NCBI RefSeq assembly: GCF_003790525.1
Contig: NZ_CP033635.1
Length of the DNA: 64,000 nt
Origin: Escherichia coli
GTDB taxonomy: Bacteria > Pseudomonadota > Gammaproteobacteria > Enterobacterales > Enterobacteriaceae
Strand: one strand, 5' to 3'
The notes beneath the pieces were generated by a model. The model worked only from the letters and a program-made list of their open reading frames with translations, had not been told where the DNA came from and searched no databases. Made by a program: the position numbers and the translations under genes. Of this stretch, positions 62,628 through 62,890 are shown piece by piece; the first letter of the stretch is position 1; every line of letters starts with the position of its first letter.

Positions 62628-62890
62628 AGAAGTTCCTTACACATAAAAAAACGGCCAACGTCGGAAGACGTCAGCCGCTGCTTTTTATGCATAGACCTCG
62701 CCTTCCGGCAAGGTCTCACTTACAACAAAAAAGGAATACGTCTGCGTATTCCTTTCGGGTTGCCCGGTGACCGGATGTGGTTTTTCACACATCGTAATGA
62801 CGATCGACCGGCAATGAAGTTACTCCCCTTTGCAGGTAACAAAGTATGACAGACCATTCAGTCAGTCAATGGTCTGTTACATACCTTTTA
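62628..62890 (-). ncRNA. sraF: alx 5' leader: yybP-ykoY-type (Mn2+/pH-responsive) riboswitch region, corresponding to sRNA SraF
   Basis: Minus-strand leader contains CCUGCAAAGGGGAGUAAC, the hairpin GAUGUGUGAAAAACCACAUC and an intrinsic terminator-like hairpin GGAAUACGCAGACGUAUUCCUUUUUU before the alx start; element boundaries approximate. Confidence 0.6.

Follow-up and report, generated by a model that had tools for sequence, protein, structure and literature searches.

The 207-nt 5′ leader of alx in this Escherichia coli sequence is, with high confidence, a default-OFF, Mn2+-ON switch, the first 126 nt of which form a yybP-ykoY Mn2+ aptamer of a three-way-junction type lacking helix P2. The element, at the same locus as in published work, is the already known alx riboswitch of E. 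coli, with this RNA described under the names PRE and SraF (PMC9472077) and treated in PMC9472077, PMC10197570, PMC12153347, and PMC12934788. Its history runs from the discovery of SraF, through the pH-riboswitch work of 2009, to the co-transcriptional probing, smFRET, and crystal structure of 2025–2026, and our analysis adds nothing new to its biology. A sequence-only reading of the same DNA had named the alx leader as a yybP-ykoY riboswitch responding to Mn2+ and alkaline pH and also detected as the sRNA SraF, and this is borne out by 99–100% sequence identity, the literature, and the published numbering. The anatomy, the conservation, the covariation of P3.1, P3.2, P4, P6, and an alternative helix, and the default folding order are drawn from the present data. 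For Mn2+ binding, the effect of pH, control at the level of translation, and how often termination occurs, the explanation relies on the literature.

Within the window analysed here (the whole stretch of 64,000 nt, to which all positions refer unless stated), the element lies on the minus strand in the 283-nt spacer between ygjR (62911–63915) and alx (61662–62627), with the gene order being ygjR, spacer, alx, and sstT. Of 5426 complete E. coli genomes, 5419 contain a match to the 601 bases of the window around the element, several of them at 100%, and in the matching genomes, over a region 99–100% identical, the downstream gene is annotated alx and its neighbour ygjR. The open reading frame of the regulated gene encodes an Mn2+ exporter of 321 residues, assigned by Pfam to the TerC family (E = 1.3e-53), and is labelled “Mn(2+) exporter Alx” in the RefSeq and K-12 annotation; a riboswitch feature is absent from the RefSeq records at the alx leader. 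Compared with K-12 MG1655, the transcribed leader, between the inferred +1 and the start codon, carries a single-base change located in the loop of the P3.2 hairpin (AAAAAC in the window, AAAAAA in K-12), with one further difference in a base of the promoter spacer, and the window version of the leader is 100% identical to several sequenced strains. Some 50–100 nt past alx (61560–61615, minus strand), a G+C-rich hairpin, CCCTCTCCCCAAAAGGGGCGAGGGG, followed by TTTTTT was seen by reading the sequence, and is probably the alx terminator.

The published nucleotide numbers (PMC12153347, PMC12934788, PMC9472077) fit only a +1 at 62834, with A11 falling in L1, U35 and A37 in L3, the pairs U18-A114 and C19-G23 in register, and termination at ~108 and ~190 nt. 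A T7-sraF-alx construct, made independently, begins at −206. As the transcript begins at ~62834 or 62833, the leader extends over 62628–62834 and is 207 nt in length, not the ~260 nt first proposed; the leader had been correctly placed upstream of alx, with its length overestimated by the inclusion of 62835–62890, which holds the promoter and a separate upstream hairpin, both outside the leader. The putative sigma-70 promoter (62841–62869, minus strand) was placed from conservation and the published numbering, and comprises a −35 hexamer TTGACT (62869–62864), a 17-nt spacer, and a −10 hexamer TACTTT (62846–62841), with TTGAC and cATAyTTT kept at a fixed distance from L1 across 74 loci. A consensus promoter scan reported no promoter at the alx leader, as the −10 matches at only 3 of 6 positions.

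The upstream hairpin is a perfect 10-bp inverted repeat, ACAGACCATT / AATGGTCTGT, at 62848–62876 (minus strand), which lies 35 nt past the ygjR stop and ahead of the alx +1, with its arms on either side of the alx −35 and the U-rich −10 region coming next. Across 74 loci the repeat is 65.8% paired, compared with 33–42% when its partners are slid, and shows a covariation of 0.29, compared with 0.11–0.14. The hairpin probably serves as the terminator of ygjR and overlaps the alx promoter; through this overlap with the −35 and −10 elements, the activity of the alx promoter might be coupled to the termination of ygjR.

The aptamer, as drawn in our hand-built model, occupies 62708–62833 of the minus strand. 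Its 5′ portion consists of the GCAAAGG strand of the switch helix P1.1 (62827–62833, pairing with 62708–62713), the L1 strand GGAGUA (62821–62826), which includes the conserved A-minor adenosine A11 (62824), the role of which in L1 is described in PMC12153347, and the P1.2 strand ACUU (62820–62817), followed by a 5-nt junction/L2 loop, CAUUG (62816–62812). With only these 5 nt between P1.2 and P3.1, no P2 hairpin is possible, hence the three-way junction, in agreement with PMC12153347 and PMC12934788, both of which still keep alx in the family; the pairs U18-A114 and C19-G23 come from the crystal structure 9JGM, as cited in PMC12934788. The left leg (62764–62811) is formed by P3.1 (62811–62801 with 62773–62764), the L3 loop UCAUUAC (62800–62794), in which the Mn-coordinating A37 is found at 62798, and the P3.2 hairpin (62793–62774). 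Beyond P4 (62722–62763), the aptamer 3′ strand (62708–62721) supplies the second strands of P1.2 (AAGU, 62721–62718), L1 (GAGA, 62717–62714), and P1.1 (CCUUGC, 62713–62708). The GAGACC strand within it (62717–62712) closes L1 and P1.1, is also present in mntP, and overlaps the 5′ arm of hairpin P5. The L1 5′ strand is likewise common to mntP and to the Rfam consensus UUGGGGAGUAGCC, and L3, CGUCAUUAC, resembles the Rfam consensus CGUCAACAUAC.

Across 70 distinct Enterobacterales sequences, 97.8% of the cells of the hand-drawn model are paired, compared with 25–41% when partners are slid, and 14 aptamer pairs show double-sided changes, located in P3.1, P3.2, and the base of P4. P3.1 is 98.9% paired with compensatory changes in 6 of 10 pairs, and 5 of the 6 pairs of P3.2 are compensatory, giving 11 such pairs for the two helices, with 3 more in the 5-bp base of P4 (99.4% paired). 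P1.1 (99.8% paired), P1.2 (100% paired), the L1 5′ strand, and the aptamer 3′ strand GUAAGUGAGACCUUGCC are invariant in these sequences, and the 5-nt junction replaces helix P2 in all 70. With both strands of P1.1, P1.2, and L1 fixed in this way, covariation neither supports nor opposes them.

All of the sequence features quoted in the sequence-only reading are present on the minus strand, namely the segment GGGGAGUA at 62828–62821 and a hairpin with a U-run at 62752–62727. The segment was said to be typical of the aptamer, and it is the only copy in the window, is invariant in the 70 sequences, and adjoins the switch helix P1.1; as an 8-mer alone, however, it lies within chance, with 0.8 copies expected per window and at least one copy in 56 of 100 shuffles. 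It goes beyond chance when combined with GAGACC, with the bipartite motif GGGGAGUA-N(85–110)-GAGACC found in 0 of 100 shuffles. Of 80 Enterobacterales loci, which span Escherichia to Serratia, Yersinia, Pantoea, and Erwinia, nearly all keep both halves of this motif ahead of alx, and the association of the motif with a TerC gene is kept in nearly all of the 80, with loci L025 and L077 the exceptions. The leader is, as had been proposed, strongly structured, with a secondary-structure check giving a minimum free energy (MFE) of −95.1 kcal/mol over 220 nt (z = −8.3) and 0 of 200 shuffles folding as well.

The sequences upstream of alx in L025 (Atlantibacter sp. RC6) and L077 (Rouxiella aceris) look like natural losses of the aptamer. 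In the former an internal deletion fuses the L1 strand straight to P5, and in the latter only the P6 terminator and the ribosome binding site (RBS) are left. Loci L024 and L046 carry insertions between P6 and the RBS.

P4 encloses the hairpin and U-run GGAAUACGCAGACGUAUUCCUUUUUU (62752–62727), which was scored terminator-like and corresponds to the intrinsic termination site B at ~108 nt. It had been taken for an attenuator lying between the aptamer and the start codon; that placement does not hold, with the hairpin sitting between the two aptamer halves (L1 5′ strand, 62826–62821; GAGACC, 62717–62712) as helix P4 itself, and with control of alx being mainly translational. Termination at site B in vitro is ~43–46%, nearly equal at pH 7.2 and 8.5 (PMC9472077), and the site is on that account a damper and not a switch. 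A long, U-tailed P4 is present in only ~19 of 63 correctly parsed sequences (~30%), a count that leaves aside 7 sequences from Pantoea and Atlantibacter that were mis-parsed, two of them falsely called as “terminator”; the others carry hairpins of 13–18 nt, found bare in Kosakonia, the E. cloacae complex, K. oxytoca, Cedecea, and Erwinia. In E. albertii (L005, ~870–1090), Siccibacter (L014, ~900–1090), and Franconibacter (L034, ~780–1090), P4 is interrupted by repeat-element insertions that run to a few hundred nucleotides, with weak Rfam matches to naRNA4, ES036, and CssrA, and with both aptamer halves intact. The apparently broken aptamers of these three taxa were rejected as such, being intact aptamers with P4 insertions, and P4 looks like a permissive insertion site.

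A broader reading of P4 is that it is an evolutionarily free slot, which is as short as a 13-nt hairpin in some Enterobacterales and reaches a few hundred nucleotides through repeat-element insertions in others, and which in ~30% of lineages, E. coli included, would hold an intrinsic terminator firing before aptamer closure; we consider this reading unlikely. Were the P4 terminator a selected timing or dosage device, or were it to yield a functional ~108-nt RNA containing L1 and L3 without the switch strand, it would constitute a regulatory layer undescribed for this riboswitch class, and were it merely tolerated, no new layer would follow. Leader-peptide attenuation through a 35-aa open reading frame (62792 to 62685) was considered and rejected, as the frame starts inside P3.2 without a Shine-Dalgarno (SD) sequence, and is not conserved because the length of P4 varies between species by non-multiples of three.

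The expression platform downstream of the aptamer contains three elements that the sequence-only reading did not mention: P5, the P6 terminator, and an alternative P5/P6 helix. P5 (62693–62716, minus strand; named in PMC12153347) is an OFF-state hairpin, and is mutually exclusive with P1.1 because both draw on the aptamer 3′ strand, which serves P5 as its 5′ arm; P5 is 91.4% paired, its inner 7 bp are nearly invariant, and the RNA polymerase pauses at nt 142–144 map to its 3′ edge (PMC9472077). P6 (62645–62678), the second OFF-state hairpin, is a terminator-like site corresponding to site D, at ~190 nt, where termination has been observed in vitro (PMC9472077), and the two terminator-like sites of the leader thus coincide with the published terminations at ~108 and ~190 nt. 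Located between the aptamer and the RBS, P6 is 95.6% paired with 3 compensatory pairs, and is better conserved than the P4 hairpin. The alternative, ON-state P5/P6 helix (62662–62707; named in PMC12153347) pairs CGGAAGGCG (62707–62699) with CGUCUUCCG (62670–62662), is 99.2% paired across 71 sequences, and changes on both sides in 3 of its 9 pairs. The covarying residues include the P5 and P6 loops of the OFF state, a loop-loop covariation which, from sequence comparison, is good evidence of a real second conformer. The platform ends with the SD sequence AAGGAA (62638–62633), a spacer, and the alx ATG (62627–62625), together occupying 62625–62638.

In the unconstrained MFE structure, two stretches of the freed L1/P1.2 strand are engaged, C16-U18 with the AAG of the SD and G8-U13 with ACUUCU, matching the published inactive conformer (PMC12153347). 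This pairing is not obviously conserved in leaders with other RBS sequences, such as that of Citrobacter, GGGGAAAU, a comparison that is qualitative. Folding of a length series gives P1.1 at 127 nt, its replacement by P5 by 145 nt, P6 by 185 nt, and the pairing of the SD with L1/P1.2 last. Nearest-neighbour energies favour the OFF state over the ON state (the aptamer together with the alternative helix) by ~20 kcal/mol, and in constraint folding the predicted accessibility of the SD moves from 0.51 to 0.48 with the aptamer alone, and to 0.67 with the alternative helix. Secondary-structure modelling alone thus fails to reproduce the switch in these predictions, and with the ON state less stable and SD exposure rising modestly, the remainder has to come from kinetics and from tertiary docking stabilised by the ligand.

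The mechanism we propose joins this anatomy to published experiments, including the models of the three-way-junction aptamer, P5, P6, and P5/P6 of alx in PMC12153347. In the OFF state, P5 would invade during synthesis, pulling the aptamer 3′ strand, GAGACCUUGCC, out of the switch helix P1.1, with the P6 terminator hairpin forming after P5, and the freed 5′ strand (L1/P1.2, GGGAGUAACUU) would pair with the SD region, leaving alx untranslated. In the ON state, Mn2+ between L1 and L3 would dock the two legs and hold P1.1 shut, such that P5 would be blocked and the alternative helix would form between the loop and 3′ arm of P5 and the loop and 5′ arm of P6, with the consequent loss of P6 and the anti-SD pairing opening the RBS. 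Alkaline pH works through the same aptamer, by a rise in cytosolic Mn2+ and a sensitisation of the aptamer to it (PMC10197570, PMC12934788), and the chief effect of the terminators in P4 (~108 nt) and P6 (~190 nt) would be to reduce read-through at the basal level and to produce the short SraF RNAs. Mn2+ binding by, or Mn2+-dependent activation of, the alx RNA has been reported from reporters, the A37U substitution, and probing (PMC10197570, PMC12153347, PMC12934788). A37U (window 62798) abolishes both the Mn and pH responses (PMC12153347), Mn-dependent induction is gone in a delta-PRE construct (PMC10197570), and docking by smFRET and the crystal structure 9JGM are reported, as cited in PMC12934788. 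On alkaline pH induction, a translational reporter responds 68-fold and a transcriptional reporter ~1.5-fold (PMC10197570), and control of alx is, by these published reporters, mainly translational.

The original PRE model holds that the leader is a ligand-free pH sensor with no role for Mn2+, in which alkaline pH lengthens RNA polymerase pausing at two leader sites, allowing an alternative hairpin to form and opening the RBS. The leader does have mutually exclusive folds decided by the order of synthesis, the pauses at nt 142–144 fall just past P5 (PMC9472077), and the 68-fold induction of alx occurs at alkaline pH (PMC10197570), all of which this model would accommodate. However, pause escape was measured as faster or unchanged at alkaline pH (PMC9472077), pH alone leaves the platform un-rearranged (PMC12153347), and the invariance of the aptamer core (L1, L3, GAGACC) in 70 sequences is as expected of a ligand pocket. 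The loss of the pH response on A37U mutation of the Mn-binding loop (PMC12153347) largely refutes the pH sensor, and we regard it as highly improbable. Just as improbable is the proposal that the hairpin and U-run form an Mn- or pH-controlled terminator, with regulated read-through the main control of alx. Whilst two terminator-like hairpins are present, nearly half of the complexes terminate at site B in vitro (~43–46%; PMC9472077), deletion of PRE raises transcription (PMC10197570), and the alternative helix would also block the P6 terminator, the quoted hairpin is P4, transcribed before the aptamer around it can close, and it is missing as a terminator from ~70% of alx-type leaders. The near equality of site B termination at pH 7.2 and 8.5 (PMC9472077) and the small transcriptional component (~1.5-fold) of a 68-fold translational response (PMC10197570) likewise count against regulated termination.

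An additional role for the terminated leader (SraF, ~108 or ~190 nt) as a trans-acting small RNA with targets of its own is compatible with an Mn2+ riboswitch, and is only marginally less improbable than the two foregoing readings. SraF initially came to light as a small RNA in its own right, in the original screen as cited in PMC9472077, and two efficient terminators would be expected to give stable, highly structured short RNAs. Against this, no target is known, the one small RNA partner tested, RyhB, does not bind SraF, the P4 terminator is not conserved, and the constraints of the aptamer and platform fully account for the conservation of the sequence. The Mn2+-ON translational switch remains our preferred reading of the leader.

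A result at odds with the family assignment came from covariance models (CMs). The Rfam 15 model of the yybP-ykoY family, RF00080, gave no match at E ≤ 1 (4 kb), at E ≤ 10 (331 nt), or at the gathering threshold (whole window), and none among 20 homologous alx leaders from other genera, with alx-type leaders from 21 taxa falling below the E = 10 threshold. As a control, the mntP leader of E. coli K-12 (L002, 2462–2574) scores 41.6 bits (E = 7e-10), compared with a gathering score of 45, showing that the scanning tool works and that the negative result for alx is real. The sequence-only reading had proposed such a scan, with the lack of a minus-strand match to count against it; no minus-strand match to RF00080 was obtained, yet to take this as a refutation would be false, because RF00080 scores mntP below its threshold and misses 20 of 20 alx-type leaders. 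We rejected the negative as a refutation after the mntP control and the covariation tests. As printed, the RF00080 model includes a P2 hairpin together with the L3 consensus given above, and stops after P4 without the 3′ GAGACC; it misses alx-type leaders because P2 is absent from them, their L3 is shorter and divergent, and their best-conserved strand, the 3′ strand, is unmodelled. Among other families, the scan of the window located RNase P RNA (rnpB, RF00010) at 25569–25945 (plus strand; 318.6 bits) and an ES036 (CssrF) sRNA or REP-like element at 44825–44865 (minus strand; 38.4 bits, compared with a gathering score of 37.6).

A CM that we built from alx-type aptamers gives one match in the 64-kb window, at 120.5 bits, by construction, with the window sequence being in the training set. 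Applied to the mntP leader with filters off, the best match of this model has the true aptamer boundaries, at only 6.6 bits (E ~0.08 on 321 nt), and its alignment covers L1, P1.1/P1.2, and GAGACC; this reciprocal match is suggestive, not significant. In terms of the family, the alx leader has the L1 5′ strand, the L3 loop, the GAGACC strand shared with the platform, and a position in the 5′ UTR of a gene for a metal-homeostasis membrane protein (in the family TerC, MntP/UPF0016, or a P-type ATPase; here TerC), and lacks the RF00080 match and the four-way junction with P2. In terms of an alx-type, three-way-junction subclass in Enterobacterales, it has the subclass CM match (by construction) and the conserved P5, P6, and alternative helix. 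The alx leader works like the yybP-ykoY family, and the literature treats it as a member.

For annotation, these results mean that Rfam-type scans miss the alx leader, an experimentally proven member of the family, together with its whole enterobacterial subclass, and that threshold-based annotation would miss both of the E. coli Mn riboswitches, alx and mntP. Pipelines that read the lack of a CM hit as refutation would discard true variants with altered junction topology.

Compared with known systems, the element is closest to the K-12 alx riboswitch (PRE; SraF), with the same locus, the same flanking ygjR and alx, and published numbers that all map, and with the P3.2 loop base and the promoter-spacer base as differences at strain level. 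With the E. coli mntP riboswitch it has in common the L1 5′ strand GGGGAGUA, the L3 core GUCA..UAC, and the 3′ GAGACC, as well as a P1.1 switch helix shared with the platform and the function of a translational ON switch for an Mn2+ exporter (PMC12153347). Unlike alx, mntP has a four-way-junction aptamer (PDB 4Y1M, as cited in PMC12153347) with a P2 hairpin, an L3 with a 9-nt 5′ strand and a 3-nt 3′ strand, and a short P4 without a terminator, and shows no strong pH response; RF00080 also separates the two, matching mntP at 41.6 bits and alx not at all, though by eye the L1 5′ strand and the P3.1-L3-P3.2 layout of the Rfam model and alx are similar. The likeness extends to the yybP-ykoY riboswitches of L. 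lactis and X. oryzae (Firmicutes and Xanthomonas), in which, by the account in PMC12153347, two coaxial legs are also docked through L1 and L3 around Mn2+ and stabilisation of P1.1 is the signal. Whereas the riboswitches of Firmicutes and Xanthomonas have four-way junctions and act through terminator/antiterminator control, alx has a three-way junction and acts mainly through access to the RBS, and, unlike them, carries a terminator inside the aptamer itself.
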